DNA from: Protoeuglena noctilucae
Taxonomy: Eukaryota
Direction of reading: 5' to 3'
Assembly (NCBI GenBank): GCA_958009085.1
Contig: OY253669.1
Location: 124,001 to 188,000, forward strand
Length of the DNA: 64,000 nucleotides
Position numbers and translations under genes: made by a program. The stretch's first letter is position 1. Every line of letters begins with the position of its first letter. Below are positions 3,612 through 61,100 of the stretch, one piece after another. The notes beneath the pieces were generated by a model, which was given only the letters and a program-made list of their open reading frames with translations, was not told the DNA's origin and searched no databases.

Positions 3612-6600
3612 ATGCAACGGGTCGTGTCCGCACGCCAGACGGCGGCGGACCGTGCGCGGCCTGCGGGCGCCTCGGGCCGGGGAGCGTGCGTGCCGGCGCT
3701 GCCCCTTCCCTTCCCGCGCGCGCGCCGTTGCGCTGGCCGTCACCTTGCGAGGGCCACGCCGAGAGTGACCAATGTAGATGCGATCACGAACGTTTTCGAG
3801 GCCCCAAAGCCCCTGTCGGGGGAGCAGGCGAGGAGCGCTGCGTCGCCAGGTTATCCATTCCGCATTCATGCGCCGGCCGGCAGCCAGGTCGAGGGATGGG
3901 AATCAAGTTATTCACACGACCCGATTGCGACCGTCGGCGTGTCCCGCGAATCACCCCCGCGCGCGTGCGCCATCGTCGCAGGGTCTGCCGCCCTCCCGGC
4001 CCCCGGAGGACGGCAACCAGCTGCGAATCGCGTGGAGGGGGCTCCTGCGCGCGCTGGCCAATCTCCCGCTGGCGATCGCGGAGCTCGCCGCCCTCGCGGC
4101 CCTCTCCGCCGTGGGCACGGTCATTGAGCAGAACCGGTCACCCGATTACTACAGGTGCGGGGCGCCGTGCGGAGTATATATTGACAATGTACTCATCAGT
4201 TGCATTCGTCAACATCAAACGCGTGTATTCGCGCTCGGTCCCGCTCGCCCGATCCGCGGCGGAGAGAGCATGGGAGAGCGTACGCATGCCAAGTTCGCAC
4301 GTGTCCCCACCTCCACCCTCTCTCCCGCAGCACCTTCTATCCCAGCGACGGTCCCAGCAAGGTTCTCGGTTTCGTCACGTCGGATTTGATCCTTTTCCTC
4401 GGCGTCGACCACATCTACACCACACCCTACTTCCTGGGCCTGATGGCGCTGCTGGGGGCCTCCCTCGCCGCGTGCACCTTCACCAGGTGTGTGGGAGAGG
4501 CTGTGTAATAGTAGTTTTACTATCTGTGCTACAGTGACAGTATTACTACCTGTGCGATGATATCACCACCTCCACATTTGCACACATCCCCCAGCCACAC
4601 CTCATCATGCGCTGTGACACCCACATCCCCCATCTACTTCCCCAACCACACCTCACCATCCGCAGGCAATGGCCGACTGTGCGACTCTCGAGCCGCTGGT
4701 CGTTCAAATCGACCAAGACCGCCATCGCGTCGCTACCATTGGCCGAGTCCCTGCCTCGCTCCCGGCTGAGTGACTTGGCCCAGCAACTCTCCTTGAGGCG
4801 ATTCCAGGTCTTTGTGAAGGACGGGAAGCTCTACGCATTCAAAGGCATCGTGAGTGGGCATATGTGGAGAGGCCTGGATGATGTGTGGGCATGTTGGGCA
4901 TGCATGCGGGTGGTGGCAGTTGTGGTGGTGCATGAGCGTAACATATGCGGGAACGGTGGTGCTGGTGATGGTTGCTGTTACTATCGCTTGTAATACAACG
5001 ATTGCCACGCTCGCCCATGGCGCCCACGCTCACCCGTAACCCCACCCCCTCCAGGTTGGCCGCGTGGCCCCCATGGTGGTGCACGCCTCGATGCTCCTCT
5101 CCATGACGGGATTCGTGCAGGGGGCGCTGATGGGGTGGGAGGGGTCCGTGATGTGCCCGGTGGGGCAGGAGTTCGTGGCCGTGCAGGCAAGGGGTGGGGA
5201 GGGAGATATTAGTGGAAATAGGAGTGGAATGGGAGAGATGAGCTAGTAGGGATGGGCAGGCGAGGGGTGGAGGGGAGGAGCGAGGGTGGTAGGAGTGAGC
5301 AGGCTTTATGCATTCCGCTGCCCCTCTCGCTTGCACCCAGCCACTCCCACTCCAACACCCCACCCCTCACTTCACACACACCTCCCCCCGAAGCCCCCGT
5401 CCCCCGTCTCCATGTTCGCCCCTCTCCCCCCGCTGTTCCACACATCACCCCCGCAGCCCCTCTCCCTTGCACCCATGCTTGCCAGCCACTCTCACCCCAC
5501 TCCCCTACCCACCACACCTCCCCCCGCAGCCCCTCTCCCCCGTCTCGATGTTCGCCCCCCTCCCCGCCGGCTCCGACGCCGTCGTCCGCGTCAACGATTT
5601 CCGAATCGACCATCGATCCGATGGTCAGGTCGGTCAGTACTTCTCAGACGTATCGGTGCTGACGAGGGACGGGGAGGAGGTGACGCGCAAGACGGTGTCA
5701 GTAAACGACCCGCTCAGGTTCGGGGACATCACGGGTGAGCATGGGTGGGGTGTGTGGGGGTGTGGGTGTGGGTGTGGGTGTGGGTTGTGGGTGTGGGTGT
5801 GGGTGTGGGTAGGGGTGTGGGTGTGGGTGTGGGTGTGGGTGTGGGTGTGGGTGTGGGTGTGGGTGTGGGTGTGGGTGTGGGTGTGGGTGTGGGTAGCAGT
5901 GTGGGTGTGGGAGTGGGTGAGTGGGTGTGTAAATGGGAGGCAACTGTTGTTCACGCGTTCTTGTTGAACCTAGCTAAGACATTGCATCAACATCTACCTG
6001 ATCAACCATCAGGTACAACCATCAGGTCCCCCCCCCGCCCCCCCCCCCCCCAGCGTACCAGACGGACTGGGGCATCGCGGGCGTGCAGCTGCGGATCACG
6101 GGCGATGGCTTCGACGGTGCCACGCCCCTGGCCCTCCCCATGGCATCGCTGGAGGGGTCGGGGGTGCTGCAGGGGCGCGCGTGGGGGACCTTCCTGCCAG
6201 GTGAGAGAGGGGTGTTAGAGATGGGTTGGGTGTTGGGGTAATAGCGCTGCAGGGGAGGGCGTGGGGGACGTTCCTGCCGGGTGCGGGTGGGATGGAGGGT
6301 GGGTGTTGTGGTGTGTGGGGGATGGAAGGGTGGGGGCGTCATGGTGCACTGGTGCGTTATTGGTGCGCTGGGGGAGAGTCGGGCAGCGGAATTTGCCAGA
6401 AGCCCCTCGACATCTCTCAGCATGTGTGCTGATGGTTGACGGTACATTTGCTTTGCTCCGTGATCCCTTGCACCACCCATTTCCAATAGCAAGACGTTCC
6501 CCTGCCACCCGCAGTGGGCGCATCGACTGGCGACGCCAAGCCCCGGGGGGTGTCGCTGATTGCGCGTGACCTCCAATCGATCGCAATCTATGACGACAAG

Positions 6601-7203
6601 GGGGCGTTCGTGGGGGTGCGGAGGCCGGGGTCTGGCAAGCCCATTGAGGTGAGCGGGGTGGTGGTGGCTTAGTGGGTGGTGTTGATGGAGTGGGGTGGCA
6701 AGCCCATCGAGGTGCGTTAAGGTTGTTGATTGAGTTGGGGTTGTTGATTGAGTTGGGGTTGTTCATTGAGTGGGTGGTGTGCCAGGAAGCGCTGAGTGCT
6801 GATGCGTCGCACTGGGTGGGTCAGGCAAGCTTATTGAGGTGAATGGGTGGTGTTGATTGTGTGGGTGGGTGTTTAATGAGTGGTAGTTTGCCAGTGGGGT
6901 GGCGATGAGTACCCCATGCCCCACCCCCGTCAGGTCTCTGGCGTTTCGCTGGTGGTGGAGTCGATGACGGGCAGCACCGGCCTTCAGATGAAGACGGACC
7001 CGGGCATCCCCGCCGTGTACACCGGCTTCGGATTCCTCATCCTATCGTCTTTCATGTCATTCCTCCCTTTCATGCAAGTGTATGCCGTGGCAGATGGGGC
7101 CACGGTTCACGTGGGTGGCAAGACTAACAGAGCTGATGAGGACTTGCGGAGGGAGCTTGACGAGGTGTTTGATGCGGTGCCGGAGGTAACTGAGACGGCG
7201 TGA
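3612..7203 (+). CDS. CCS1: Cytochrome c biogenesis protein CCS1 (ResB family), plastid-targeted, multi-exon
   Basis: Exon peptides [104 protein letters not shown]. Arg/Ala-rich putative transit peptide from 3612; start uncertain. Confidence 0.92.
5742..5930 (+). repeat. (TGGGTG)n hexamer microsatellite in a CCS1 intron
   Basis: More than 20 near-perfect TGGGTG units directly after the acg|ggtgag donor region. Confidence 0.95.
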
Positions 7204-7935: not shown

Positions 7936-8135
7936 NNNNNNNNNNNNNNNNNNNNNNNNNNNNNNNNNNNNNNNNNNNNNNNNNNNNNNNNNNNNNNNNN
8001 NNNNNNNNNNNNNNNNNNNNNNNNNNNNNNNNNNNNNNNNNNNNNNNNNNNNNNNNNNNNNNNNNNNNNNNNNNNNNNNNNNNNNNNNNNNNNNNNNNNN
8101 NNNNNNNNNNNNNNNNNNNNNNNNNNNNNNNNNNN
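7936..8135. other. Assembly gap (200 N)
   Basis: Run of N. Confidence 1.
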
Positions 8136-10990: not shown

Positions 10991-13323
10991 TCACCGCTTG
11001 TTGGGGTCCGGGAGTGTGGCGATGTCCGCGTCCGTGCTCCACGTGTCCGGAATGAGCTCCCTGGCGTAAGGGTACAGGTCGGCATAGGCGGCCACGAGCG
11101 TCGACTCCGCTTGGCCCGTCACTGCGGCATGGAAGGTCGATGCCGGTGGGCGTGTGGGCGCAGCGCAGCGCCGTAACGCGCGACAGGAATCCAATCTTTG
11201 TTACACAGACATGCGCGGCAGAGGTCAGTGAGGTAGGGTAACGCAGCAGGTACTAACTAAAGGGGCTGCACGCCTGGGCCACTAATGGGCCATGCGCACT
11301 GTGCAGCCCAGGGCTCGCTAGTTACTAACTCCTGCGTTGCGAGGTGACCTGACGAGACGTGCTTGGTGGTGAACGTCTGGGGCGCTTTGGGCAGCAGTGA
11401 CATCATGTAAATGATGGCGCCGGCGATTGTCGTGGGCTGCTTGGCGTCCCAAGGCCTGCAAGGGCAGTTAGCCGGCGTCGCTTTGCTTCGCTGCGAGACA
11501 CGCAACCAGCTTTGGACGCAGCCACACACGACATGCTGCCACCAACTACACGCTGCCACTCACCGGTGCGTCTTGGCCCCCGCGCCGTCCGCGTCCTTTG
11601 GCCTCGCACGGTCTGCCGCCTCCTGGCAAGCCTGCGAGAATGCTAATAATGGGGAGGGTCACCTAACTGCGCCTGTGCGCCACCGGTGTGTTACCCATCG
11701 CCACATCAACTGCCCGCTGCGGCCGACACCTCGGTCCCGAGCTGGGACTGGCGTTTCAAGTCAACCAGCGGGGTAAGTGGGTTTTTGGCTCCACAGAGCT
11801 ACAACAAACGCATTCCACGGGCTCTTGCGACCGGTCTAGTGCGACAGCGCGGGACAGGGGGTCACCGGCAATCAGTCGCGTCATGGCTCGGCACCGTCAG
11901 CTGTGGCACAACCCACAGCCCTGCAGGGCGCAGCACGCACCTGCACGAACTTCCAGTGGCTGCTGGACACGATGCCCATGTTGCGGAGGTAGCTGGTGAC
12001 GTTGGCCTGCGCCAAAGGACAACGGCTGGGTTGCAGCCATGCACGCCACGGCACAGACGGCGCAGCATGGCACGGCGCAGGTCGCTGCTCGTCCTAAGGC
12101 GGTCCTCAGAGACTCAACGACACGGCGCAGGTCGGGCTATGGCCAGAGAAAGGGCTACGTGAGTGCCATGGCGTGCACAGCCCGACTGCGACCCCTTTGC
12201 CATCCCAGCCGGCCATGGCAAACGGCGACCCCGCCTTTGCTCGCCTTAACGGGCGACCTGGCGCTGACGAGGAGCTCCCGCCACGACGCGTCGGCCTTCG
12301 CCAGGTCCTGCAATGCGGCCTCCACGGCCTTGTATGCCTTGTTAAAGACCTTGACCTCGAGCCCTGCCAAGGCGCTGACCTGCTTGAGCGTGATGACGCT
12401 GTTGTGGAGGTAGCTGGACCACCGCAGCACGGCCGCGTGCACTGCTGTGTTCTTCTTGCCGCGGATGTGCTGCGGAGAGGGACGCAATGGAGATGCATTG
12501 GTGACGACAGGGCAGTGGTGATGGCGGTGGGCACGTGTGGAGGTCGACGCGCACGCTTCCGCAGGAGCTAAACGCGCACGACAGGCCCGCGCATTGCAAA
12601 ACTTCGCCGCAGTGCGTGGGCAGCCGTGCAGGCTCGACGCCCCGTCTCGTGACTGCAGTCCATGACAGCGGCCACGCACCTGGGGGCAGTTCCGCAGGAT
12701 CTCCGCCATAATGGTCAGCGACCCTTTGAGGACGATGTCGGGTGCGTTGCACAACTCGCACCACCGCCGCAGCTCCCCCTCCGCCTGCTTCATGCGAGCA
12801 TCGTGCCCGGACGACCCCCCCGCCTTGGCCCTATTCATCGTCTGCGCAAGCATCTTCATGCCCTTCCCACCCGAGAGATACGTCCCGACGCCACCATTGG
12901 ACTTGGTGAAGTTCAGCTTCTTCCCGACGCGCTGCGGGGTTCGAAAGGACAGGGTTCGGGAGTTGGCAAGCTCCCGCAGCCCACCGCCACGCGCGTCGCC
13001 GTTCATCGCGGGATTCGTCGCCAGCGAATGATTCCATAATATGGTTACGTGCGATAAGTGCAAAGCAGGACGAAGAAACGCGTCGCGAAACGCACCGAGG
13101 GGTCGTGGTTCTGGTCCTTGTCCTTCTCGCTGAAGTCCCGCCACTCGGAACGCTCATCGAGCATCGCGGAGTCCAGAACCAGGCCACAAGCCTTGCATTC
13201 TACCCTTCCCTCGCGGGGATTGACCACCACCTCGTCGCATCCGCACTCATGGCACTGCGACCGCTGGGTAGCAATCGCGTGCGACGACCGCGGCACGGCG
13301 CCGTCGCGCAAGCGCCGTGTCAT
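10991..13323 (-). CDS. Transcription factor IIB family protein (divergent TFIIB)
   Basis: Zn ribbon CHECG...CKACG, B-reader LDERSEWRDF, linker DPS/RVG, cyclin-repeat segments RGKKNTAVHAAVL and KQPTTIAGAIIYM, and a C-terminus TGQAESTLVAAYADLYPY resembling plant TFIIB GVAEGTIRNSYKDLYP. Confidence 0.85.
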
Positions 13324-31569: not shown

Positions 31570-34500
31570 ATGGCTGGCCAGGAGGACGTCTCCAACAAAA
31601 TGGCAGCGATGGATATGGGGGATGAGGCAAGTCTGGGGGGGCGTTGGTTGATGTGGTGGGCCCGATGATCGCGGAAGAGAGGCATGCATCGGCATGACAC
31701 ACGCGAGCGTGTCTCGATGTGCGCGCGTCGCGTGATGCTAATTGGACTGCCCGGCACACTCGATGCCGCGGCGCCGCGGGGGCGGGAGCTGCCATCGCCG
31801 CGATGGCCCAGCTGTTGAGGTCTCGCATTGCGCCATCGCACCGTGGTGTAGATCTCCCGGGTTGGGCCGCGGGACGGGCGCCTGGGGATGGCATCGCCTA
31901 CCCCGGTTTGCTCGGCGGCCGCGCGCCGGTTAGGCCGTGGCTCGACCGTTCCCGCTGTCGCCGACGCGAACAACGCTTTAAATAGCACAATACGCGATAT
32001 GAATCGCGCCGGATTTCCACCGGCTGAAGCGGGCGGGCCCCGACCTCTGCGCGCAGGACGGCGTGGGACCCGACGACGGGGAGGCGGGCGGGGAGAAGCT
32101 CTCCAAGAGCCAGATGAAGAAGCTGGCGAAGAAGGCGGAGAAGGCGGCGAAGCGCGGGGGCGACGCCGGGCCCGTGCAGCGCGGGCAGGGGGCCGCCAAG
32201 GCACGCCGCGCTGCGCCAGGCTCGCTGCGCCCTCCGCGTCTGCCGTGTCCGCCCTGAGCCCGCGCAAACCCTATATTCGCTTTTCCTCCGCAGCTTATGA
32301 CGGAGGCGGACCCGGACGACCCTCTCCGCGACATGTACGGGGACCTTCCCCGCATCCAGTCGCAGCCGCAGGCGAGCCGCCCGCCGGGCCGCCGCTGCGC
32401 CCGCGTCGCATGAAAATACAGCAGCAGAAGTATGTTTGAGTATCCTTGGCCCGACTCGGGCGCGGCTCTCCGCGCTCCGCAGACGGGCCGCGTGTGGACA
32501 GACGTCATCGCGCTGGGTTCCGCGATGGAGGGCCAGCGCGTGCTCCTGCGTGGCCGCGTGCACACGACGCGGTCGAAGGGCAAGTCGGCGTTCCTGGTGC
32601 TGCGCCAGGGCACGGCCACGGTGCAGCTGGTGCTGTTTGTCGACGAGGAGAAGGTGTCGAAGCAAATGGTCAAGTACGCGGCGGGCATCCCCAGGGAGAG
32701 CATCGTGGAGGTCGGGGGCGACGTCGTCCGCCCGCAGGCGGCGATCGAGTCGTGCACCCAGGCGAGGGATATGCGTGATGGGGGGGCGGTGTCTGGGGGT
32801 GTGCTGGTGGGGCGGGATGCAGTGCTGGGGAACAGCTCTTGATGCTGGCAGAGGTGGCAATGTCTTGGATCACTCCTTTGTTGCCACTCCCGCCATCCCT
32901 AACACCCACGCCACCCCAGCCACCCCTGCCGCGTGCCGCACCACCACCCTTGTTCACCCCTTAACAACACCCCCCTCGGCTGTTGCAGAGTGACGTGGAG
33001 GTGCACGTTCGGCTGATCAAGGCCGTGTCTCGCGCCGATGCTCTGCCATTCGAGGTCACGGATGCTGCACGGGGCGAGAAGGAGATTGCAGAGGCGGAGG
33101 CAAAGGGGGAGACAATGGTGCGCGTGGGGCAGGCGCTGAGGCTGGACAGGAGGTGAGGGGTTGAGGGTTGTTATAGGTGGTGAAGGGGTGTGATGGTGCA
33201 TGTGTGGGGCAGACGCTGAGGCTGGACAGGAGGTGAGGGGGGGATGGCGAGGGCTGAGAGGAGAGTCGCAATCATTGTCACTTGCACACAATCCCGTTCC
33301 CTGGCGACTCACACTCCCCGCCAACGCTTCTCTCATCTCCCTCCCCACCCCTCCCCTCTGACCCGCTCCCCACCCCTCCCCTCCTTTCACCCTCCCTTCT
33401 CCCCTCACCCCCAACCCCCACTTCTCACCCCCCCTCACCCCCCAGGTACCTCGACCTCCGCACCCCCGCCAACCAGGCCATCTTCCGCGTCCAGTCCGCC
33501 GTTTGCGCGCTGTTCCGCGAGGCCCTGTCCCAGCGCGGGTTCATCGAGATCCACTCCCCCAAGCTCATCGCGGGGACGTCTGAGGGGGGCGCCGAGGTCT
33601 TCCGGGTCGAGTACATGGGCCGCCCTGGGTGCCTGGCGCAGTCGCCGCAGCTGTACAAGCAGATGGCGATCTGCGCGGACCTGGACCGGGTGTTCGAGAT
33701 TGGCCCGGTGTTCCGTGCGGAGAAATCCGAGACACACCGACACCTGTGCGAGTTCACGGGGCTCGACATGGAGATGGCCATCAAGGAGCACTACGACGAG
33801 GTGAGGGGGAGGGGAATGATAGAAAGAGAGATAATAACTGAGGAGCAATGCGACGAGGTGAGGGGTGGGAAGTGAGATGGGGAATGATAGTGGGGAAGAT
33901 GATAACCAAGGAGCAATGCGACGAGGTGAGGGGATTGGTCAAGTGACTATCAACGTGCACCATTACCTCTTACTTCAACTCCTGCATGCCCTCTTCCTGC
34001 ACACACACCACTCTCTCTCACCCCTCTCTCTCTCCCCAACACCCATCACCCTCTCTCTCCTCTCATCCCCCCAGGTGCTCGACGTCCTGGACGCCCTCTT
34101 CCTGCACACACACTGTCCCTATATATAGACTCCTACATATACCTCTCTACCCTCTCCCTTACCCTCTAGATCCTGGACGTGCTGGATGCCCTCTTCCTGC
34201 ACGTACACATCTCTCACCACTCTCTCTCTCTCTCTCTCTATTCCCACCCCTCATCACTTGTTACTTAACTCCCCTCTTTCCCTCACCCCCCAGGTGCTCG
34301 ACGTGCTCGACGCCCTCTTCCTGCACATGTTCCGCGGCCTCAACGAGCGCCACGCCCACGAGCTGGCCACCATCGGGGCGCAGTACCCGTTCGAACCGCT
34401 CAAGTTCCTCGACAAGAGCCCCCGCATCGAGTTCGCGGAGGGGGTGCGCATGCTGAGGGAGGCGGGGTACGAGATGGACGACATGCAGGTGTGCATGGTG

Positions 34501-35357
34501 GGGAGTGACTGATGTGGGATGGGATATAGAAATAGAAAGAGTAGGGTAACATGCGAGATGGACGACATGCAGGTGGGTGGAGTAAATATGGTATGGGTAG
34601 CATAGGAGGTACACGACATGCAGGTGGATGCATGGTGGGGCGAGATTTCAACATGGGGAAGGAGCAATGTGTAACTCATTACAATATTACCCCACATTCC
34701 TCTTGACAACCATTGCAGGACCTGAACACGGAAAGGAGCGATGTATCACCACACCCCATCCCCTTCACCCGTCACAGGACCTGAACACGGAGAAGGAGCG
34801 TGCCCTGGGCCGCCTGGTGCGCGACAAGTACGGCACAGACTTCTACATCCTCCACCGGTTCCCCTCCTGCATCCGACCCTTCTACACCATGCCCGCGCAC
34901 GACGACCCCAGGCGAGACCAGACACGCGCCTGTGCTTGGTAGAAGAGACGGAGGTGTATGTATTGTTGACTCATCTATGCTCGGCGTGGCATCGACACCG
35001 TTGCTCTTCCGCTACCCCACCCACCCACCCCACCACCCCACCCACCCACTCACCTGTCACCCCACCCCTGGCCTGCCCCGCAGGTACAGCAATTCCTTCG
35101 ACATCTTCATCCGCGGGGAGGAGATCATCTCCGGCGCCCAGCGCATCCACGAAGCCGACTTCCTGGCCCAGCGTGCCCGGGAATGCGGCATCGAGGTGGA
35201 GGGGATCAAGGATTACATTGAGAGCTTCCGGTACGGCGCGCCGCCCCACGGGGGCGCAGGCGTGGGGCTGGAGCGCGTGGTGATGCTCTTCCTGGGACTC
35301 GACAACATCCGCAAGACCAGCATGTTTCCGAGGGACCCCAGCCGGCTCACGCCCTGA
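31570..35357 (+). CDS. DARS: Cytosolic aspartyl-tRNA synthetase, 9 exons
   Basis: N-terminal [12 protein letters not shown] helix, OB fold ([21 protein letters not shown]), [13 protein letters not shown], motif 2 [16 protein letters not shown], motif 3 [13 protein letters not shown], ending [10 protein letters not shown]. Confidence 0.96.
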
Positions 35358-38603: not shown

Positions 38604-38637
38604 CCGACGATTCAATCGTCGCTCACACAGTCAATAC

Positions 38638-40310: not shown

Positions 40311-40458
40311 GAGCGGTGGCCCTGCCTATCCTACAAGAATGCGTGGTCTAGCGCTTCTGCGGGGAACACGCTACATGTCTGCAACCCTCACGGTCGTCGG
40401 TCCAGGAAAGCAGAGCTGCTGGGCGTCAGCCGCGGCTGCGCAACCGCAAGAATCGTTA

Positions 40459-41035
40459 TCACTGGGGGCCCACGACCACCATGTAAGGCCTGACTTCGTA
40501 AGAGGGAACGAGGCCGTTCTTGACGTATGGGTCCGCCTTGACAAAGGACTCGACCTCGTCCTGGGGAGGCGGCACGTGAGTTGATGTGGCATCATCGAGC
40601 TTCTCCACGCGCTCCTTGCAGCGATAGGGCCCCAGTACCACGCGTCACCTTCGTAACGTCTTTGAAGATGAACAGAGCGCCGTCGACAGGCTCCGCCAGC
40701 GCCCCAGCCATCACCATCTTGCCGGCGTCAAGCATCTGCCGTGCCCCGGCCAAGTGCTGCTCCCTGTAAGGCCCGCGCTGCGAGCGAGGAGACCGTGTTG
40801 ATCGTTTCAGCTGCCGAGAGCGCATGGCCGCTCTCCCCGGCCACCAGACCGTCACCAACGGATGGGCGTGGCCAAACCTGCAACGTACCTTCTCGAGAAT
40901 GTCGGGGACGTACTTGTAGAGCAGTGCGTAGTATCCTTTCGTCGCCCCAGACTGTGCCCTCACTTGCATCGCGCTGAACCTCCCGCGAGAGACGCGCGAC
41001 GCTGGGCCTCCCAGCCGGGCCAACGCCGACAGCAT
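40459..41035 (-). CDS. YciI-family protein with organellar transit peptide
   Basis: YKYVPDILEK/RGPYREQHL..MAGALAEPVDGALFIF../..FVKADPYVKNGLV: the R-x-x-H, AG and DPY motifs of YciI. Confidence 0.88.
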
Positions 41036-41270
41036 CCGTGCAGCGCGGTCAGAGGTCGGGTCGGATACCGAGATGAATCGTGATACTCGCGCGCTGTGGC
41101 ACCTGGTTTCATCGCCAGGGGTTCAGGCTGGCAACGGCACTGGCAGCAACGTTTGGCTCCTACCGGGCAGAAAAGCATGCGTTGAGTGCAACTTGCAACA
41201 TTAAAAGGTGTTTGTTTATCGACTCCTGCGTTCCGCGCGCCCTGGGGACGTGACCGTCGGCAGCAGCAGC

Positions 41271-42518
41271 ATGCGCGCAGGTAAGGCGCGCGCTCGCTCC
41301 TTGCACGCGTGCCTGCGAGCTGCAAAACACAGAGTTGCCAACTGTGTGCTGCAGAGCAAACAGCTGCCAACGATGTGCTGCTCAGTACGCAGTTCTGGCC
41401 GCTGTAGCGGCCCTTGCGCTGGCGGCGACCGCGTGGGCGCAGCAGTCGACGCCCTCTGCCCCGACGGACTACGCGTGCGTGGGCCGGATCAACGCCGCGG
41501 GCCAGGCGTCGCTGTCGGTCGCGCCGGACAAGGCCGTGACCGCCTGGTCACTTCACATCAACGCCACGGACGCCAACAGCCCGCTGGTTACCCAGGCGGA
41601 CGCCCGCAACGCCACGGCGACAATCTTGCAGAACATCTTCTCGCAGCTCGGGGCGGACGGAATCCCCCAGCAGGCCCTTCAAACGGACAGCATCACCTTC
41701 TCGCCCATCAATCAGCGCGTCAAGGTGCTGCGGACGGACCTCGAGCCGCAGCTCACGTGCTGGTGCCAGGACGGCTGGGCGATGAAGAGCGACTGCTTCA
41801 CGTGGCAGGACCAGACGTCGGGGTGGAGCGCCACCGTGGCCTTCTCCGTGACGCTGACGGGAGCCAGCGTCGACCCCAAGACGCTCTCCGACGTCATCAG
41901 CAAGGCGAGGCCCGCGAAAGCCAGCTTGTCGGTGTCCCGGCCTTGCCGTCTGTTCACCGCGGCTGTAACGAATCTTCCTGGCTTGTCCCAGGTCCTCGCG
42001 GCGGGCAAGGACAATGTGACGCTCACCGACCTCCGCTTCGACTTGTCCAGCGACCTCCGCCAGAAGTCGGAGCTCGCCGTCGCCACCAAGGCCGTCGCGG
42101 ACGCCAGGAGCAAGGCAGACGCCTTTGCGCAGGCGGCCGGCGGCCGGCTGCAGCTTCCGCTGAAGGTCCAGGAGACGCCCATTACGGACGACAGCATCGG
42201 GACGCCCATCACGCTGACGCCGGTGCCCACCGCACAGCCCGCCCAGACGTCGGCCGGTGTGGCGACGTTAGCCACCAGGTGCGCCGCGCATGCGTGCCTC
42301 CCTGGCACCCTGTGCTGTCCTCGCTGATAATGGCCGTCCTGTGCGTGCGTGCGTGCGTGCGCAGGAATGTCGCCTCGCCGCTGGTGATGGCGGCCAAAGC
42401 GGCGCCCCAGACCGAGGCGGCGGTCTCCATGGATCCCTCCGCGGCACTGCCGGTCGCCCCCAAGCCCGTCGTGCTCTCCCAGGACATGTACGTCCTCTTC
42501 TCCATGTGCGCTGCCTGA
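41271..42518 (+). CDS. Secreted SIMPL/DUF541 (YggE-like) domain protein
   Basis: MRA/VLAAVAALALAATAWA signal peptide; GQASLSVAPDKA, LQTDSITFSP, LRFDLS, AVADARSKADAFAQAAG are typical SIMPL motifs. Confidence 0.8.
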   Translation: MRAGKARARSLHACLRAAKHRVANCVLQSKQLPTMCCSVRSSGRCSGPCAGGDRVGAAVDALCPDGLRVRGPDQRRGPGVAVGRAGQGRDRLVTSHQRHGRQQPAGYPGGRPQRHGDNLAEHLLAARGGRNPPAGPSNGQHHLLAHQSARQGAADGPRAAAHVLVPGRLGDEERLLHVAGPDVGVERHRGLLRDADGSQRRPQDALRRHQQGEARESQLVGVPALPSVHRGCNESSWLVPGPRGGQGQCDAHRPPLRLVQRPPPEVGARRRHQGRRGRQEQGRRLCAGGRRPAAASAEGPGDAHYGRQHRDAHHADAGAHRTARPDVGRCGDVSHQVRRACVPPWHPVLSSLIMAVLCVRACVRRNVASPLVMAAKAAPQTEAAVSMDPSAALPVAPKPVVLSQDMYVLFSMCAA

Positions 42519-42770
42519 GGATTGTCAAGTTGTGCCACCGAGGGGCTCAGGAAGGCGTCGCTTAGGGGTGGTTTCTGGCGAGGGGGTGCGGTCCGAAAAC
42601 TGTTGGCTCCCTGGCCGCGCTGGATCCGAAAGAACTACATCCCGGCGCTTGTTTCGCAACGCAACTGAAATTGCGGCGCCTCTTTCGGGCCGTGAGGGTG
42701 ACCTCGACCTTCCGGGGGCTGCCTCCCGCCCGCGCGCCCGCGGCCGTGCCGGGACCCGGCGCGTCCTGCC

Positions 42771-45700
42771 ATGAGCGCGGTTGGGGCATGCAGCGCGCGC
42801 CCGGCTCCCTCGTGGGCGCGGGGCAGGCGCGCCGGCCCGAGGGGGGTGGTTGTGCGGTCTGCCGAGAACGGGGTGTCCACGCAGACGGGGAGCGAGCTGC
42901 AGCAGCTGAAGCTCGAAATCGAGCGTCTCAAGAACGAGAACTTGGCGCTGAAGATGCGCCTGGGCGTAGGTCGGGCCGCGCGGGGGCCTGTCGGGGAGGG
43001 GAGCCGGGCTGTGCGGCCAGCGAAGACCCCGTGTCGTCCGGGGCGCGCGCCGCCCCACACGTAACCGGCCGCGCTCGGCTGGGTTGCGACGCATCGCAGG
43101 AGCCCGCCCCGCCCCCGCAGAGGCAGGAGTGGTGAAGACCGACGCCCCGGCGAGCCTGCCGCCGGAAGCGGAGGATGTGCAGCCCAAACACAGCGACGCC
43201 ATGACGGGTGAGGACCGCGGCGCGCGCGCGAGATGCAATGCTGCGATTCGCGGTCCCGAGGCTCGTCCGGACTCGCGACCGGCGCCCGGGGGCCGGGCTG
43301 GATCATGCTTCCCGCTATCGTGCGCGCCCCGGGCTCGAGCCCCCGCGGCGCGCTCGGAGGGCTGCGCCGCTCCTTCGCATATATCCTCCTCTCTCCCCGC
43401 GTGCCCCCGGCGCCGCCCCTAGCCCCGCGACGGTTGCTCCAGCTCATGGCGACCCCGTCTCTCGCGCAGAGGAGGAAATCGCGGAGCTGTTGCAGGACGG
43501 CATCCGCTGGCCCGAGCGAGGCGAGGCCAATTTCTGGGAGAGGCCTCCGCGCACGTCCCCGCCGCCGTTCGAGCTGTACGACACGGGCGGGGGCGCCGAC
43601 GTGGTGCATCCCCGGGACAGGATCGCCCTCCACATCGTCCACATCACGGGTGAGCCATCCGCTGCAATTTATGCGACGCTCTTTCGTCATGCGTTCTCCG
43701 CTAGTGGGCGTCGCGCGCGCAGGGCGACCATACGTGCGTCACGGGACCATGCGAGCAGAGTGATGCCCACGGTCGTGTGACCATTCCCGTGCTCGCCCCT
43801 GTTCCCGCAGCTGAGATGGCCCCGGTCGCCAAGGTCGGGGGCCTGGGTGACGTGGTGACGGGCCTGAGCAAGGCCGTCATGGACCGGGGTCACAACGTGG
43901 AGGTCATCCTTCCCTTTTACGAATCCCTAGAGACGCACCGCGGCACGGCCGTCATGACGCAGCCGACGCTCGAGATGAGCTTCCAGTGCCCCAAGGGGCG
44001 CGTCTGGGACGGCGTCATGCAGCTGGGGGAGCTGCAGACCGAGGTCTACCGGTGCGAGATCGACGGCGTGCCCGTGGCTCTCATCCGCCCGGACTGGGGG
44101 CAGAGCAACCTGTTCAAGGTGCGCGGGTGGCGAGCAGGGGTTTCTAGTCTCGCTCTCGGCTGCTTCGATAGTTGCTTTGACTGCTGACCGTACGCTCCTC
44201 CTGACGCTCACCGTGGCTGACGTGGACAATAATGTGTGGAATGTGTGTCCCCCGCAGGGCGGCAAGATCTATGGTGGCTCTTACAACGAGCCCGAGGCGT
44301 ACCTGTACTTCTGCCGCGCCGCGCTCGAGTACCTGCTGCGCAGCGGGCGCAACCCGAACGTGCTGCACATCCACGAGTGGCAAGCGAGCGCCGCAGGTGC
44401 GGACACAAGCCTGTTGTGACTTCGTAACTGTTCTTCTCTTTGCTGTCTTCATCCCTCAAGTCGGCTGAGACGGAAGGGCATGCGAGCGGTGTGCCCCGCT
44501 GGGTGCTTCGACTGGTCTGAGTTGCTCTGCCTGTTCTGCCTGTGTCCCTCGCCCTCGCAGCCCTGTTGTACTGGATATAGCTCTGCTGTACTGGATAGCT
44601 CTGCCTACTATGCCCATGTCGTTCGCCCTCGCAGCGCTGCTTTACTGGGACTTCTTCCACGGCGTGGGCCTCACGCTGTGCCGGGTCGTGCTGACCATCC
44701 ACAACGTGGGCAACTCGGGGGAGATCAGCCAGCAGGAGTTCAGCGTCACGGGCGTGCCGGGAAACTTGTTTGCCACCATCGACAAGGCACTGGACGAGCG
44801 CACGGTGAGCGGGAATGCGAGAGTGGAGTCGGGGCAGATGATGAACATGCGCAGAGCCATGGGGGCTTTCTTACTTGGTTGATTCGACACTCCAGGGAAT
44901 GCCGATACCGGTCACCGCGATAGTGACGGGTGGCAACGAAGGCATTGGCCACTCTGACTCCGACCTTCTCGCCCCCGCCGCTGCAGATCGGTCACAACCC
45001 CGAGCGCCTCAACCTCCTCAAGGGCGGCATCATTTACTCCAACGCAGTCACGACCGTGTCGCCCACCTACAAGGTCGAGACATTGGAGCGCGGCGCGGCG
45101 GGGTGGCTCGCGTGAGTGTCTCGCGCCGCTCCGTGATTCTACCATATCCAGCGTGTTGTGTGTTCCTTGCTTTCCGTCCCTCGCCTTTCCTCGGCTCCAT
45201 CCCAGCTCTCTCTTTGACACGAAGAGCGTCGCCGCGGTTCCCACCCACCCAACACCCTTTCTGGCCCCGCAGCACCACGCTGAACCGCCCTGACGTCAGG
45301 CCCAAGTATTCTGGCATCCTCAACGGCATCGACATCGAGGCGTGGAACCCCACGGCGGACCCGACGATCCCCGCGCCCTTCTCCCCCGAAGTCCTCACCA
45401 CCAAGGCCCTATGCAAAAAGTACCTGCAGAGGGGCCTTGGGCTCGCGGAGAACCCCAACGCGCCGCTCTTCGTCTGCATCACCCGGCTGGTGAGCCGGCA
45501 GTCGGCATAGCTGGGGCGGTCGGGGTGGTGTGGTGTCCCAGCATGAGTGTGCTGTGCTCTCCATGACTTACTCAACCAATTGTGGCGTGCTTTGGCGTGT
45601 TGGGAGCAATCTCACCACTGGATGTGTACAACACCGCCCGCAGGTGCCCCAGAAGGGCATCCACATGATCGCGCGCGCCATCCGCAAGGCCAACGAGAGC

Positions 45701-46287
45701 GGGGCGCAGTTCGTGCTTCTGGGGACGGGGCACGCGGACGGGGAGTTCAAGAAAATGGCGGAGCACGAATTCCGCAACTCGGACAGGCGAGCGGCGGAGC
45801 TGGCGGGCGCCGCGAGACGCACATTAGCACCTGCGCAGGGCGGCTGCATGGCCGCAGTCGTACCGATACCATCACCATGCCTCCCTTCCCTCGCAGGGTC
45901 AAGTGCCTGCTCTTCTTCAGCGAGCGCCTGTCGCACCTCTTATACGCGGCGAGCGACTTCACGGTCGTCCCGTCGATGTTCGAGCCCTGCGGCCTCACCC
46001 AGATGATTGCAATGCGGTATGGGTCTGTGCCCGTGGTGCGGAAGACGGGCGGCCTGGCGGATACGGTCCAAGATGTGGACGCGGACGCTGGCGAGGGGAA
46101 CGGGTTTGTGTTCGAGGGGGCGGGGGACCACGACATGGCCGTGTGCATGGACCGGGCTCTGAGGCGGTACCACCAGGGCGGCGAGGGGTGGAAGGACCTC
46201 GTGCGGAGGAACATGAAGCGCGACGTGAGCTGGGGCAAGTCCGCCGCGGCGTACGCCAAGCTCTACTTCGAGATCGGGTTTGATTGA
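42771..46287 (+). CDS. Soluble starch synthase (GT5), SS4-related, most like the SS6 type
   Basis: Transit peptide and short coiled coil, WP..FW motif, HIVHIT/AEMAPVAKVGGLGDV, LDERT/IGHNPERLNLLKGG, GILNGID, TRL/VPQKG, VPSMFEPCGLTQ, KTGGLADTV. Confidence 0.93.
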
Positions 46288-53132: not shown

Positions 53133-53196
53133 GTAGCCGCCCGTTGCGCCCCGCTCGACCCCGACTCAAACGCGAAGCCCCGGCGCGCGCCGCAGA

Positions 53197-55410: not shown

Positions 55411-56157
55411 AGGGGAAGGACGGGACGAGTTCCTGTCTTCCCCCGATGGCTCCAGCTTCGTTTACTGCATAGGAAGGCGCGGGCGCCTCTAGGGGCGGAG
55501 AGGCCGGAGCCGAGACGCGGCCCCGGTTGCGGTGGCCGCCGTCGAGGCCCGCCTCCCGCCCCCGCCCCGCCTGCAAGATTCTGGGGTCTACTTGTCGCTT
55601 GGGATATCGTCATTCGTTGGGCTGTCCGTCATCGACCTCAGGGTTCCCTTGACGCCCTCCCAGGGTGATTCCAGCGTCGTGGATTGGATGTCGAATTGTC
55701 AGGCCGCTTTCCTTGTGGTAGTTCCCGGTCGGGGCCCCGGCCTTCGCGTAGTGCGCGTGCTGTGTGTGCCCAGGTCGTCTCCGTTTCGCACGCACCCCGG
55801 CGCGGGCTGGGAGCCTCCCCGGCCCGCGCCCGGCTGAGGCCGCCCCCTAATGCCGCGGGGCTTCATATAGCATCCGCCCCGCTCATTGGCAACGGCATGT
55901 GCGTTTCCGGGCCTAGGCCCAGGCCTTTCGTTTCGCTTGAACGCGACAGCGCATGCGAGGACTCTTATTCAAGCCGCGCCCAAGTGCCGCGAGGCTGGCA
56001 GTGCTCACATCGCCACTGAGGATGAGCACCGTGTGCCTGCAACTGAGCGCAGTCCGCAAGAACCTGACCTGAGCCTGCACTAGCCTAGAGGAACGAGGAG
56101 GGCAGCAGCAATGCCGCAGCTGTCGGGCCTGCCCCAATTGTTGCCTCATACCGTGCG

Positions 56158-58117: not shown

Positions 58118-61100
58118 ATGGATGGGGGGCAGCAGCTCGCGGCTCCAATGACTCCTGTGAGCCCGCAGGACTCTCTCGCGGAGAGGTGAGGCCTCGCATC
58201 CGCCCGGCCCTTGTGGTTTGTCCGCCTTGTCCGCCGCACACACGCGATGGCGTCCTCCACCCCGCCATCGCGGCGTAGTACACGAGTGATGGACGAGGCG
58301 GCTGCCTTGCACGAAGGCGCGCGACGATCGGCCGTCCCCGGCAGCTGCGTGCGTGCTTGGGGAGCATGTCGACCAAAAGCTCCACGCTTTGCGCAGGGCC
58401 ATGGACGGTCTGCAGGAGGCATTCGATTGGCAGGCGAACGGCAAGTCCGGCACGGCGAGCGCCGTCGCCAGGCTGTCTTTGCAGGACATTGCGTCGATGG
58501 TGAGGGCAAAGATTGTGGCCCCCGCCGCCGCCCGCGTTCCGTTTCCTCCGCTGTCCCGACCGCCCTCCTCTTCTTTGCTGTGGAAACGCATCGCCGGCCG
58601 CCTTCCGGCTCCGCAGGACGTCGGGGCGCTCGGCCAGAACTCCCGCCTGGCTGCGACTGCCAACGGCGCCCCGGGCGCGGCCCGCAGCGCCGGCTCGCCC
58701 CCGCAGTCCCAGCGACACGTCCCGCGCGGGTCGGTCCACGCGCACACCGCGCCACCCGGCTCGGTCCATCCCCCGGACACGCCGGGGCTGACACCAGTGC
58801 ATCCGGTGCACATGCGCTCTCTCCAGGCGGACACGCTCGACCCCGACGCCTCCTTCGCTTCCAACGCGGGCCGCAAAGAGCTCTCCCTCGCGCGCGAGCG
58901 CACCACCCTCGAGATCAACAGCGAGAACGTGCTGCGCGGGGAGATGACGCTGCAGCGCTTGCAGGCGAGTTGCCGTGCGGCTCCGTCGGGCGCCGCGCCA
59001 GGCGCTCGCCGGTGGGCCCTCGCGCGCGACCCGCCCGCGTGTCGCTTCTCGCGCAGATGGGGGAGCTGCGCGCGCAGATCGTCGAGCTGGACCGTCAGGT
59101 CCGCAGCCTGAAAGGGGAGCTGACGGTCAGCGAGCGCATGCGTTTCGCGCTCATGTGCGCGAGCCAGGGCCGCATGATGGAGGCCCGGCAGGCCATGGCG
59201 CCGCTGGACCGCGAGCTGCGTCGGCTCCAAAAGGCGCGCCAGGAATCGGAAGCGGCGCTGGAGGAGCTGCGGGAGTCGTCGGAGCGGAGCAAAGCGGAGC
59301 GCGAGCGGGCCGTGGGGGACCTGCAGCGGGTGCTGGCCACGCGGGAGGAGGACGTGGCGTCGGTCGCCCGGGAGTACGAGGGTCGCGTCGCGCAGCTGCA
59401 GGGAGAGGTGGCGAGGCTGCAGGGCGAGCTGGCGCACCGGGTGAGGCGGCGACGACGACGATGCCCCGCTGTCGTTCCATTCTTCGCTCTCATTCGCCTT
59501 GGGGACCCACTTCACCGCTCGCTTGATGCCGCGAATGGCAGCCGTGGGTGCAGACCCTCCCGGCGCTCCCTTCCCCGGCATTTTGTTCATATTTCTGCTG
59601 CTGCGCGCAGGACAACGAGATCCGCGGCATCGCCGACCGCACGGCCCTCGAGGCCACGCGGCAGGCCATGGAGGAGCTGCAGCGGGAGCGCGAGGAGCGG
59701 CATCGCGAGTCCAAGGACCTGGCGGCCAAGGTGAGGGATGGGAGACTGGAGAGAGGCAGTGAGAGTGAGTGCCAGTACCTGGCGGCTAAGGTGAGCCACG
59801 GGCAGACTGGAGAGAGACCATGGGCGTAAGATAGGTAGAATGCCTGCCCGCCGCGATGATGGTAGCGTTTGGGCTCAAACCCACACCCCACCCCTGCCTG
59901 GCCCCTCCCATGCGAACCGCCCAGCCCTGCGTCGTCGGCCCCAGTACCAAGCCCAGATGCGCGAGCAGCGTGCGCACAGCGACAGGCTGCTGGAGGAGGC
60001 CCGGAAAGAGATGGAGGAGGTGCGGAGGGCCAAGGACGAGGAGGTGGCGTCCCTGAGGGAGGCCCACGCGAGGGCGGCGCGGGAGGCGGCAGCCAAGCAC
60101 GAGAGGGAGATGGAGGAAGAGGCCGAGAAGGCCGCCATGATACGGTGCGTTGAGAGAGATGGGATGGGTGTTGGTAGCACGCGGATCTGTGGCGCTGGCC
60201 GGGTTTTTCGTGGCACTGGAAGCGGCGCTGGCTGCCTCGATTCGCGTTCGCTTCCCTGCTTCTCACTTGCGTCTGTCACTTGTGTCTTTCTTTCGTCATA
60301 CACTTATGTCTCACTTGCTTCTCACTTGCATCTTTGTGCTCCGTTCCACCCAGGCGCGAGGCGGCCCAGCGGTACGAGGCCCTGGTGAAGGAGGAGCGGG
60401 AGCGGTGGCAGGCCCGCGCCGAGCGCGCCGAGGCGGAGATCGACCGCGTGCGGCGCGAGGAGGCGCAGCGGTCGGAGGAGGACGCGCGGGCGGTGCGGGA
60501 GGCGGCGACCAGGGAGAAGGAACTGGCACTGGCGCGGGTGAGGGGTGGGAGCGGTGGGGTTTGGTGGGGTGGGGATTGATACGGAGCGGTCAAGTGTGTG
60601 AGGGGCTGGAGATGGAGAGCAGGGGTGCAGGGGTGCAGGGCTTGGGAGGTCTTGAGATAGTGGAGAGAGGGAAACAGGAGGTGATGCATTGCTTGTACGT
60701 GTGCCACCCCACAGGTGCGTGAGGAGGCGGAGGATGCGATCGACGCCGAGCGCCGTGCGGCGGAGGAGCTGCGCCGGGAGCACGAACGTGAGGTGCGGCA
60801 GCTGAAGGAGCGGTACGAGGGCGCGCTGCGAGACATGGAGGCAGCGCTGAGACGGCGGGCGGAGGAGGTGGTGGGGTCGCTGGAGGGGCAGCACCGGGGC
60901 GAGGTGGAGGCGCTGCGGGCGCGGCTGGAGGCGGGGGAGGGCGCGCGGGAGCGAAGGCTGGTGGCCGAGCTCGAGACCGAGCGGGCGCGCAACCGGGAGC
61001 TGGCGGCCGAGGTGGCGGCCGTGTCGGGGCAGTTCCGGTGGCAGGTCGACGCGCTGCGGGCCCAGGTGCGGGGGGCAGGGTGGGGCGGGGTCAGGCTTAG

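Follow-up and report, generated by a model that had tools for sequence, protein, structure and literature searches.

The window, i.e., the whole 64,000-nt stretch of DNA that was analysed, belongs to a GC-rich, intron-rich marine alga. Eight introns in four of its genes carry echoes, which are copies of an adjacent exon end together with its splice site inside the intron, and the copied sites are referred to as decoys. The introns are listed below with the score of the matching exon-end probe and, where determined, its rank.

5187..5529, + strand: GC-AG intron of the ResB/CCS1-like gene, an array of acceptor echoes (score 27.0, rank 1 of 90)
6201..6514, + strand: CCS1-like gene, a single donor echo whose decoy GT lies at 6281 (score 23.0, rank 1)
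6649..6933, + strand: CCS1-like gene, two donor echoes whose decoy GTs lie at 6712 and 6839 (score 17.5, rank 1)
33153..33445, + strand: AspRS, a single donor echo whose decoy GT lies at 33233 (score 34.5)
33801..34293, + strand: intron of AspRS with donor decoys at 33858 and 33926 and acceptor decoys at 34075 and 34170 (donor score 22.0, acceptor score 33.0, each rank 1)
34489..34777, + strand: intron of AspRS with donor decoys at 34573 and 34624 and an acceptor decoy at 34719 (scores 22.0 and 22.0, rank 1)
44397..44634, + strand: GT5 starch-synthase-like gene, a single acceptor echo whose decoy exon begins at 44561 (score 14.5, rank 1 of 90)
59731..59944, + strand: intron of the coiled-coil gene with one donor echo, decoy GT at 59791 (score 19.0)

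The census comprised 90 introns, 15 supported by RNA and 75 from a purpose-made gene finder. Probes of 30 nt of exon and 8 nt of intron were run against every intron of the census. Adjacent exon-end probes gave 10 matches, six donor echoes scoring 17.5-34.5 and four acceptor echoes scoring 14.5-33.0, and all remaining adjacent probes scored ≤11.5. For the non-adjacent control (8,010 pairs of each kind), the 99.9th percentile was 12.5 and the maxima were 13.5 for donors and 16.0 for acceptors, the latter from a single pair that exceeds the lowest match (intron 44397, 14.5). The intron echoes are thus confirmed as real and far above chance. The original prediction had described such copies in seven introns and had proposed this comparison of adjacent with non-adjacent introns; the copies were present in all seven, recurrence in unrelated genes and at both intron ends was upheld, and the eighth intron (44397-44634, borders from the gene-finder model and gene identity by Pfam) was added in a fourth gene. 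The EFL and ProDH introns, described as free of echoes in the original prediction, gave none in the exon-end probe census. An annotation-free scan of the whole window for local direct repeats not of low complexity found 16 clusters, nine of which are junction echoes. Cluster density was 2.5 per 10 kb, vs 2.3 per 10 kb (14 clusters) across 60,233 bp from 13 metagenome loci that are likewise GC-rich but unrelated. TRF did not report any of the echo arrays; identity between units is therefore low wherever they do not derive from the exon. All eight echo introns lie in plus-strand genes (8/59 vs 0/31, p = 0.047), the minus-strand gene models being weak.

Most echoes are near-complete tandem units of 57-136 nt straddling the junction. 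Over all echoes, units span 51-136 nt and exon parts 10-49 nt, and no regularity of breakpoints was seen. Homology covers 0.85-1.54 of the spacing in 6/16 real-echo comparisons (6201, the first echo of 6649, 59731, and the acceptors of 5187, 34489, and 44397), and therefore the exon part and the intron part were copied together; spacer homology was significant in 5/9 donor-echo tests. For intron 5187, whose model is supported by frame and Pfam ResB continuity across the CCS1-like gene, the tandem unit is 136 nt, with the last ~79 nt of intron and the first 40 nt of exon copied at 5315-5433, where the decoy exon begins at 5394 (98 of 122 positions identical, over 0.88 of the unit), and a second, shorter acceptor copy lies at 5439-5466 (decoy exon start 5457). 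Either decoy acceptor shifts the frame. The 80-nt unit of intron 6201 holds 35 exonic and ~38 intronic nt (60/76 identical, 0.91 of the unit), identity being 89% in its exonic and 71% in its intronic part, and use of its decoy would cause a frameshift and stops. Intron 6649 has echo spacings of 63 and 127 nt with co-duplicated spacers (homology p = 0.008 and p < 0.002), an 18-nt tandem of three copies within the array (6721-6780), and two decoys that both run into stops. The duplication in intron 59731 is a clean 60-nt, 2.0-copy tandem of 24 exonic and 36-39 intronic nt (50/64 identical, 1.05 of the unit; spacer homology p < 0.002), and that in intron 44397 has a 74-nt unit (48/63 identical), followed by a 2.4-copy, 20-nt tandem of the exon-start motif at 44559-44604.

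Three of the AspRS donor echoes deviate from simple 2.0-copy units, so that something more must have happened, for example insertion of filler, a deletion, or gene conversion, and the arrays at 33801 and 34489 stop right after the junction copy. The echo of intron 33153 repeats 38 exonic and 15 intronic nt (48/55 identical), its 11-nt donor context is that of the real site, and its spacer (32-40 nt) has no detectable second copy (spacer homology p = 0.59). Intron 33801 is nearly all echo array, with donor units of 57 and 68 nt, acceptor units of about 95-124 nt, a further partial acceptor copy at 33979-34011, and a gap of only ~44 nt (33935-33978) between both arrays; a core of 21-25 nt is identical between its sister echoes. 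For intron 34489, the donor echo at 34573 is 22/22 identical, and the acceptor echo unit is 59 nt. The claim that echoes drive intron lengthening was borne out, with a median length of 291 nt for echo introns vs 173 nt (p = 0.0055), falling to ~159 nt once the arrays are subtracted, and with ~1158 of 2469 nt of echo-intron length (~47%) lying between the real site and the farthest echo.

Consensus-grade decoys had been described, and 4/9 decoy donors score equal to the real site, the others being 2-5 nats weaker. If used, seven of the nine would give a stop or frameshift, and the other two would add an in-frame peptide without a stop (AspRS, +19 aa; coiled-coil gene, +20 aa). Assembled RNA contigs from two metatranscriptomes (X8 and X9) showed only the joints 33152/33446, 33800/34294, and 34488/34778, which are the outermost sites of the three AspRS introns. 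The prediction that the outermost sites are always used is therefore RNA-confirmed for these three introns and holds by reading frame for the CCS1-like gene. In the coiled-coil gene either donor may be used, as both leave the frame open, and the gene finder favoured the inner one. The acceptor chosen is the downstream-most one, although a decoy of nearly equal strength lies 219 nt before it (PWM 6.9 vs 7.6), and donor scanning does not explain this choice.

We lean towards reading the echoes as what selection has left of ordinary local tandem duplications, comparable to the minisatellite in human F7 IVS7. Such duplications, having units of ~50-140 nt and at times recurring in several rounds, would produce minisatellite-like arrays in or at the edge of introns. 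We infer a neutral filter by which an exon-internal duplication would be eliminated by selection, and an intron-internal one would be neutral but would fade fast because both copies are free and the sequence is of low complexity. A junction-straddling duplication would be tolerated while the outer site remains in use, and its copy would stay recognisable because the coding sequence holds one copy constant; the outcome would be an intron longer by one unit length and carrying decoy splice sites. Presumably the decoys are silent because the upstream donor is selected first, an effect demonstrated by experiment in F7 IVS7, and because mis-spliced RNAs are lost, as most decoy donors bring a stop or frameshift.

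For human F7 IVS7, a 37-bp minisatellite is described whose first unit spans the exon 7-intron boundary and whose identical downstream pseudo-donors are silent because the most upstream site is selected (2006, PMC1557585). The donor arrays at 33153, 33801, 34489, 6201, 6649, and 59731 resemble it in that units start in the exon and the authentic donor is followed by (near-)identical, presumably silent pseudo-donors, and the AspRS RNA result agrees with use of the most upstream donor. As this description precedes it, the claim of novelty for the phenomenon was too strong. F7 IVS7 is one locus whose 37-bp units are homogeneous and known to be polymorphic in copy number (PMC1557585), whereas the alga has one to three diverged copies per array in 8/90 introns of four genes and also has mirror-image acceptor arrays with the downstream-most site used. 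The echo introns would accordingly be a closely packed natural collection of events of a type already known, and not a new mechanism.

Local duplication is also known as a source of new introns. In the Rogers model, the stretch separating two tandem copies becomes the new intron, copy 1 supplying its donor and copy 2 its acceptor. Introns created when an exon segment containing AGGT was duplicated in tandem in the genome have been described (Hellsten et al. 2011, PMC3265369), with a potato RdRp case (PMC4974935). There, as in the alga, a local duplication copies splice-site-bearing sequence and splicing between sites restores the transcript; the alga differs in extending an existing intron that has a unique core and in leaving the duplicated sites unused.

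A process that specifically duplicates splice junctions, as originally predicted, is possible but doubtful. Introns with G-rich 5' and C-rich 3' arms pairing end to end would then be an engine of intron growth tied to architecture, where a hairpin, G-quadruplex, or R-loop at a splice-site arm would stall replication or provoke staggered breaks at intron edges, and fill-in with end joining, or template switching, would double 35-50 nt across the junction, sometimes with filler. The predicted link between echoes and G-rich 5' intron ends was found, with echoes in 6/11 introns with a 5' G-C skew ≥0.5 vs 2/79 others (Fisher p = 2e-5), and gene clustering of the echoes vanishes once conditioned on skew class (p = 0.30). 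RNA structure predictions made in silico pair the two ends of the high-skew introns with each other (0.156 long-range pairs per nt against 0.070, with a mean z of -1.7 against -0.2; 77/90 predicted pairs long-range in intron 33153), two introns have arrays at both ends, and the echoes with non-homologous spacers (33153 and 34489) resemble a duplication plus filler. However, the skew class consists of 11 introns from essentially two genes, the echoes at 44397 and 59731 (skew 0.43) fall outside it, and the breakpoints showed no regularity.

For the window as a whole, the 10 junction arrays compare with ~4-6 independent intron-internal repeats, where random placement of 51-136-nt units expects a junction fraction of 0.58 (p = 0.22-0.45). 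The ratio of junction-spanning to purely intronic duplications is thus what random placement predicts, so by the original prediction's own refuting test the window as a whole speaks against the specific process, and most echoes are ordinary tandem units with the intron part co-copied. Within the 11 strongly skewed introns, eight junction arrays vs no internal array (units of at least 40 nt, p = 0.009) give a hint of junction bias for this class only, confounded by detection bias because low-complexity intron copies decay faster than exon-derived ones, as at 6201. The window scan showed no comparable 50-140 nt duplications outside genes, in an intergenic space that is small. Donor echoes do lie in the G-rich half and acceptor echoes in the C-rich half, as predicted, but this placement loses its meaning since geometry alone yields it. 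Non-chance internal direct repeats, including repeats of adjacent exon ends, are reported in 55/90 Daphnia pulex neointrons, where they are attributed to staggered double-strand-break repair and proposed to lengthen and diversify young introns passively (Li et al. 2014, PMC4202315), which suits breakage at intron edges. Unlike these repeats of newly gained introns, the alga's copies comprise 14-49 nt of exon together with the splice site, and original and copy share one side of the intron.

It is improbable that the decoys are selected functional elements, i.e., alternative sites for regulated unproductive or variant isoforms, or U1/U2AF-binding reservoirs tuning splicing. The four full-strength decoy donors, the two in-frame, stop-free peptides, and the identical core in intron 33801 would fit such roles, but the other decoy donors are weakened, the RNA contigs of both metatranscriptomes (which drop rare isoforms) show outer junctions only, identity between echoes and real sites is 71-97%, the changes being scattered as neutral decay predicts, and ~3 events suffice for the mismatches between sister echoes.

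An origin of the introns or spacers as introner-like transposons, with the echoes as long target-site duplications, is very unlikely. Introner elements are reportedly found in marine picoalgae (Simmons and colleagues in 2015, Gozashti and colleagues in 2022), and the echo introns are similar in occurring in a marine alga, in that many introns are absent from relatives (these introns are absent from the metagenome relatives of AspRS), in intron ends that are inverted complements (5' GTGAGGGG, 3' CCCCTCAC), and in the copy-spacer-copy layout at 33153 and 34489, formally like an insertion flanked by duplication. In contrast to introners, no multi-copy family emerged; when 18 introns were searched against the entire window with blastn-short, two 18-nt low-complexity matches were the sole inter-intron similarity. 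The duplications lie on the same side of the intron and not across it, spacers are themselves duplicated in most arrays, and at 22-55 nt the duplications are far longer than the target-site duplications of such elements, which are 3-12 bp for introners. Daphnia target duplications are given as 4-12 bp (PMC4202315). Repeated intron sequences of introner type were observed in relatives' loci L034 and L002.

An assembly or haplotype-merging artefact, for which a 200-N gap in the window (7936-8135) and one odd X1 contig fusing 34093 to 34294 via 14 foreign letters might speak, is scarcely credible, as the copies are 3-29% diverged and hence not collapsed or doubled reads, and it is already refuted for 26001-46000, the region of the AspRS and starch-synthase-like loci in which independent DNA was compared. 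Introns 33801 and 34489 were reproduced with 0 differences in an X5 contig of a marine metagenome from another study (33379-35020) and in X1 isolate contigs (33317-37663). The echo of intron 33153 lies within X5 DNA contig 26001-33356 and intron 44397 within X5 DNA contig 35060-46000, each with 0 differences.

The three regions named in the original prediction were read and searched for direct repeats, and all of the echoes listed there were present. Donor echoes consist of the last 17-49 nt of the exon, the GT and some intron sequence, repeated 51-190 nt downstream. Acceptor echoes repeat the intron end, its AG and 10-40 nt from the exon start, 59-219 nt upstream. One further echo intron, the eighth, was found in the GT5 starch-synthase-like gene. 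All eight lie in plus-strand genes (8/59 introns vs 0/31 on the minus strand, p = 0.047, where the minus-strand models are too weak to build on). The echo introns and their decoy sites are:

Intron from 5187, + strand, CCS1-like gene: decoy exon starts at 5394 and 5457
Intron from 6201, + strand, CCS1-like gene: decoy GT at 6281
Intron from 6649, + strand, CCS1-like gene: decoy GT at 6712 and 6839
Intron from 33153, + strand, AspRS gene: decoy GT at 33233
Intron 33801-34293, + strand, AspRS gene: decoy GT at 33858 and 33926; decoy exon starts at 34075 and 34170; partial third copy of the acceptor at 33979-34011
Intron from 34489, + strand, AspRS gene: decoy GT at 34573 and 34624; decoy exon start at 34719
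Intron 44397-44634, + strand, GT5 starch-synthase-like gene: decoy exon start at 44561 (acceptor echo)
Intron from 59731, + strand, coiled-coil gene: decoy GT at 59791

An annotation-free scan of the 64 kb accepted local direct repeats with 21 or more matches in 24 positions and a spacing of 25-600 nt, low complexity removed. It gave 55 matches in 16 clusters, nine of which were junction echoes. The comparison of adjacent with non-adjacent exon ends proposed with the original prediction was done on the 64-kb window, to which all statistics refer. The census comprised 90 introns, of which 15 were RNA-supported, those of the CCS1-like gene were curated by reading frame and Pfam, and 75 rest on gene models; since so many are model-based and the minus-strand models score poorly, the census denominators are approximate. 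The purpose-written splice-aware gene finder recovered 18/20 of its own training introns, a circular figure. Junction probes, each with 30 nt from the exon and 8 nt from the intron, were aligned to all 90 introns. For non-adjacent pairs (8010 per kind), the 99.9th percentile was 12.5, and the highest scores were 13.5 (donor) and 16.0 (acceptor). Against their adjacent introns, six donor probes scored 17.5-34.5 and four acceptor probes 14.5-33.0, with the remaining adjacent scores at or below 11.5. Echoes thus occur in 8/90 introns, in four genes, and in 3/15 RNA-supported introns. None was present in EFL (three predicted introns) or ProDH (one predicted intron), as had been stated. The Pfam content of the window includes a nuclear ResB/CCS1-like gene, a GT5 starch-synthase domain and an EFL-type GTPase; taken with the marine labels of the sequencing runs, it suggests a marine alga of the green lineage. 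Genes have roughly 4-5 introns each, which pelagophytes, at under one intron per gene (10.1101/2024.10.30.620910), do not match. The CCS1-like gene and the EFL-type elongation-factor gene are separated by a 200-N assembly gap (7936-8135).

Echo extents and identities were obtained by banded in-register alignment of real sites with their echoes (16 comparisons). In most echoes the exon part and the intron part were copied together, as a nearly complete tandem unit. Homology spans 0.85-1.54 of the spacing in 6/16 comparisons, and spacers were co-duplicated in 5/9 donor tests (significance against shuffles).

Extent of junction echoes relative to the spacing between real site and echo
6201 donor echo: unit 80 nt; exon 35 + intron 38 nt; 0.91 of spacing covered
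59731 donor echo: unit 60 nt; exon 24 + intron 39 nt; 1.05 of spacing covered
6649 first donor echo: unit 63 nt; exon 49 + intron 48 nt; above 1 of spacing covered
5187 acceptor echo: unit 136 nt; exon 40 + intron 79 nt; 0.88 of spacing covered (98/122 identical)
34489 acceptor echo: unit 59 nt; exon 23 + intron 27 nt; 0.85 of spacing covered
44397 acceptor echo: unit 74 nt; exon 14 + intron 49 nt; 0.85 of spacing covered

The multi-copy arrays at 6649, 33801 and 34489 need further rounds of duplication, and sister echoes carry common changes that the exon lacks. The three AspRS donor arrays are tandem only in part, and a simple 2.0-copy event does not account for them: 33153 has a junction copy with 48/55 identical positions but no second copy of the spacer (p = 0.59), and the arrays at 33801 and 34489 stop directly after a junction copy. 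They could be explained by filler insertion as the duplication took place, by a subsequent deletion or by gene conversion. Tandem Repeats Finder at score 40 reported no echo array, since the copies have diverged too far beyond their exon-derived part. Extra conservation of the exon-derived core was considered for the 33801 sister echoes, where 8/8 mismatches fall in the spacer, yet these represent about three mutational events and the difference is not significant.

A search for independent DNA and RNA gave isolate runs labelled with one organism (X1-X4), marine metagenomes (X5-X7 and X12) and marine metatranscriptomes (X8-X11). Isolate run X1, metagenome X5 and metatranscriptomes X8 and X9 were compared with 26001-46000 only, as assembled contigs, which indicate presence and not levels. 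The X5 contigs, from a study other than that of X1, match 26001-33356, 33379-35020 and 35060-46000 with no differing letters and no gaps, and the X1 contigs match 33317-37663 and 41461-46000, also with no differing letters and no gaps. The AspRS and starch-synthase-like echo arrays are therefore not an artefact of the window assembly. One X1 contig joins the ends of 34093-34294 via 14 unrelated letters (depth about 120 vs about 190 for the main contig), and a second departs from the window at 34076; they may stem from an allele whose acceptor-echo array differs, or be chimeric. At 35032, the CCCA-repeat of AspRS intron 34912-35083 is one C longer in both DNA runs (6 isolate contigs and 3 metagenome contigs) than in the window, likely a length error in the window sequence or a polymorphism.

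The original prediction held that the outermost sites are always the protein-correct ones. Among the joints listed, the X8 and X9 RNA contigs each join 33152/33446, 33800/34294 and 34488/34778, the outermost donor and acceptor, which supports this for three AspRS introns; because assembled contigs drop rare isoforms, minor decoy use in AspRS is possible. For the CCS1-like gene the claim is supported by reading frame only, the outer sites alone keeping the frame (frame logic and Pfam ResB continuity); a last-exon search for homologues gave nothing at E <= 1e-5. In the coiled-coil gene either donor may be the one used: both leave the frame open, and the gene finder chose the inner one. Splice-site PWMs trained on the 82 non-echo introns agreed with the description of the decoys as consensus-grade: 4/9 decoy donors equal the real-site score, three with an identical 11-mer, and the scores of the other 5/9 fall inside the range of real introns or close to it. 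At decoy acceptor 34075 the score is 6.9, vs 7.6 at the real acceptor. Use of a decoy donor is predicted to cause a stop or frameshift in 7/9 cases. The other two, 33858 (+19 aa, AspRS) and 59791 (60 nt, +20 aa, coiled-coil protein), would give in-frame insertions without a stop and are candidate alternative 5' splice sites. Sequestration of decoys in RNA structure was rejected as the reason for site choice, since the mean unpaired probability does not differ consistently between decoy and real sites (donors: decoy 0.00-0.67 vs real 0.10-0.67).

The echoes make up a large part of the introns that carry them. The distances from real site to farthest echo sum to about 1158 of 2469 nt over the eight echo introns, whose median length is 291 nt vs 173 nt for the others (p = 0.0055) and about 159 nt without the arrays. 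In intron 33801-34293, about 44 nt are left between the donor and acceptor arrays. Together, the array share of length, the longer medians and this short core show that the duplications lengthened the echo introns. In some introns, about half of the sequence can be put down to local duplication.

Echo introns are also distinct in composition, with a strong skew toward G at the 5' end and toward C at the 3' end; the median 5' skew is 0.69 vs 0.01 (p = 0.0003). A skew of at least 0.5 is found in 6/8 echo introns vs 5/82 others (Fisher p = 2e-5). The 11 skewed introns include five in the CCS1-like gene and four in AspRS, and this class explains the clustering of echoes by gene (p = 0.045 unconditioned, 0.30 inside the class). 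Folding predictions pair the two ends of skewed introns with each other: long-range pairs number 0.156 vs 0.070 per nt, with a mean z of -1.7 vs -0.2, and in the predicted fold of 33153-33445, 77/90 pairs are long-range (z = -4.3). Introns whose 5' arm is rich in G and whose 3' arm is rich in C occur in 4850-6933 and 32762-35083, with ends that are inverted complements, GTGAGGGG ... CCCCTCAC..CAG. The architecture is nearly missing from the genes neighbouring CCS1-like and AspRS. CCS1-like intron 5735-6053 contains a (GTGGGT)n microsatellite of about 30 units (5745-5929), beginning 10 nt past the donor, and a 24-nt C run (6028-6051) directly before the acceptor. A block of dense C/T-rich nested tandem repeats with periods of 6-102 nt (1098-1722), beside the minus-strand PWI-domain gene, was read as coding low-complexity sequence by the gene model. 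GC donors are frequent: they were found in 4/15 RNA-supported introns, after the cut was moved inside the stated ambiguity, and in 22/90 introns in the gene models. Echoes occur in 1/22 GC introns vs 7/68 GT introns. Emiliania huxleyi has about 60% GC donors (PMC4028052). The following GC-AG introns were noted:

5187-5529
31627-32056
32201-32293
32762-32988
34912-35083

Whether the junction itself is targeted, the point on which the original prediction was to stand or fall, was assessed with an internal-duplication control, in which 1316 internal 38-nt probes were slid over all introns with a self-match cut-off of 12.5. Self-matches were obtained for 103 probes, 63 of them in the eight echo introns (junction arrays) and 14 in the (GTGGGT)n microsatellite. 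The other 26 fall in 11 further introns, about four of which have convincing independent duplications:

4487-4665, 51-nt unit, ending at the acceptor
12007-12244
55465-56008
60145-60353

Random placement was modelled using the observed unit lengths on pre-duplication introns, with at least 14 nt of exon counted as junction-spanning, and expects 0.58 of intron-touching events to span a junction. The observed ten junction events vs four internal ones (six under lenient counting) are no departure from chance (p = 0.22 and 0.45), and local-repeat density is similar in the window (2.5 clusters per 10 kb) and in 13 unrelated GC-rich metagenome loci (2.3). Given the ratio of junction to internal events and the similar repeat density, the window as a whole is in keeping with small tandem duplications of the ordinary kind, screened by selection and detectability. 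The original interpretation is supported in part: it stands for intron growth and for the link to G-rich intron ends, and not for a duplication process specific to junctions.

Inside the 11 skewed introns, the count is eight junction events vs no internal ones (p = 0.009). Low-complexity intron copies decay faster in skewed introns, so that internal events are under-detected there; at 6201, identity is 89% on the exon side vs 71% on the intron side. A junction-focused duplication process in the skewed class is possible but unproven. We consider it rather unlikely that skewed introns are duplication hotspots in which breaks at the base of a hairpin (structure or R-loop) are repaired by copying the junction, with growth from both ends. 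Under such a process, the G-rich 5' arm would pair with the C-rich 3' arm, splice sites would sit at the base of a long hairpin, the intron would repeatedly copy its own splice sites, and the spliceosome would reliably take the outermost pair. If true, introns would expand by a mechanism that is driven by their own architecture and reinforces itself; it could also lead to intron sliding and to new alternative sites, and would offer many natural loci for testing how splice sites are chosen. The echoes link intron growth to a peculiar G/C-skewed, hairpin-prone architecture; should the link extend to the whole genome, the evolution of intron size would be tied to DNA or RNA structure.

Of the known systems, the human F7 IVS7 minisatellite comes closest to the junction echoes; it has served as a classic model of donor choice at one locus. 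The exon 7 boundary lies within its first 37-bp unit, and identical pseudo-donors are silent, since the most upstream donor is selected (PMC1557585). The window arrays resemble it in their head-to-tail units that begin in the exon and include the authentic site (the three AspRS donor arrays partly so), and in pseudo-sites of authentic-like strength downstream of the real donor. As to copy-number variation of the F7 type, the contigs of X1 and X5 match the window exactly, and the one odd X1 joint (34093-34294) could be a variant allele. The window offers ten such arrays, at donors and acceptors, with decoys that range from identical to weakened, a natural series for how the spliceosome ignores perfect decoys. 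The 3' sites are of special interest, as 'first AG after the branch point' predicts the opposite of the choice seen. Daphnia neointrons are a second likeness: 55/90 of them contain non-chance internal direct repeats, ascribed to staggered breaks that passively lengthen young introns (PMC4202315), and non-chance internal direct repeats are likewise present in the window introns (63/103 self-matching probes in the eight echo introns). Tandem duplication is also documented as a source of new introns (PMC3265369 and PMC4974935). Intron gain of this kind (Rogers model) was rejected for the window because the real donor and acceptor flank unique cores and the junction copies lie inside the intron. 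A mobile introner-type family was rejected because 18 introns compared with the 64-kb window gave self or echo matches and two 18-nt low-complexity matches only, and a short target-site duplication across an introner, in which the upstream exon end recurs at the 3' end of the intron, because echoes are on the same intron side as their source. In the literature searched, which holds few of the subscription journals, recurrent junction echoes at both intron ends were not reported for an algal genome. The echoes are a known kind of event, and what is distinctive is their density, the acceptor-side arrays and the tie to hairpin-like skewed introns.

A search of the metagenomes with one AspRS exon gave 80 loci, the best 77-82% identical in this exon and 58-69% overall. 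The closest relatives (61-69% identity overall) had no intron where the window has them. Some distant lower-GC loci have introns 2-6 residues from the window AspRS positions at residues 396 (L033), 461 (L029, L032, L046 and L056) and 505.7 (L048 and L054), which may reflect gains at nearly the same place, slack in the alignment or intron sliding. In two GC-rich relatives, L034 (356-398 and 633-675) and L002 (2330-2360 and 2725-2755), the two short AspRS introns of each gene have near-identical sequence in common. The repeats in these relatives have spacings of 277, 242 and 395 nt and look introner-type, unlike the window.
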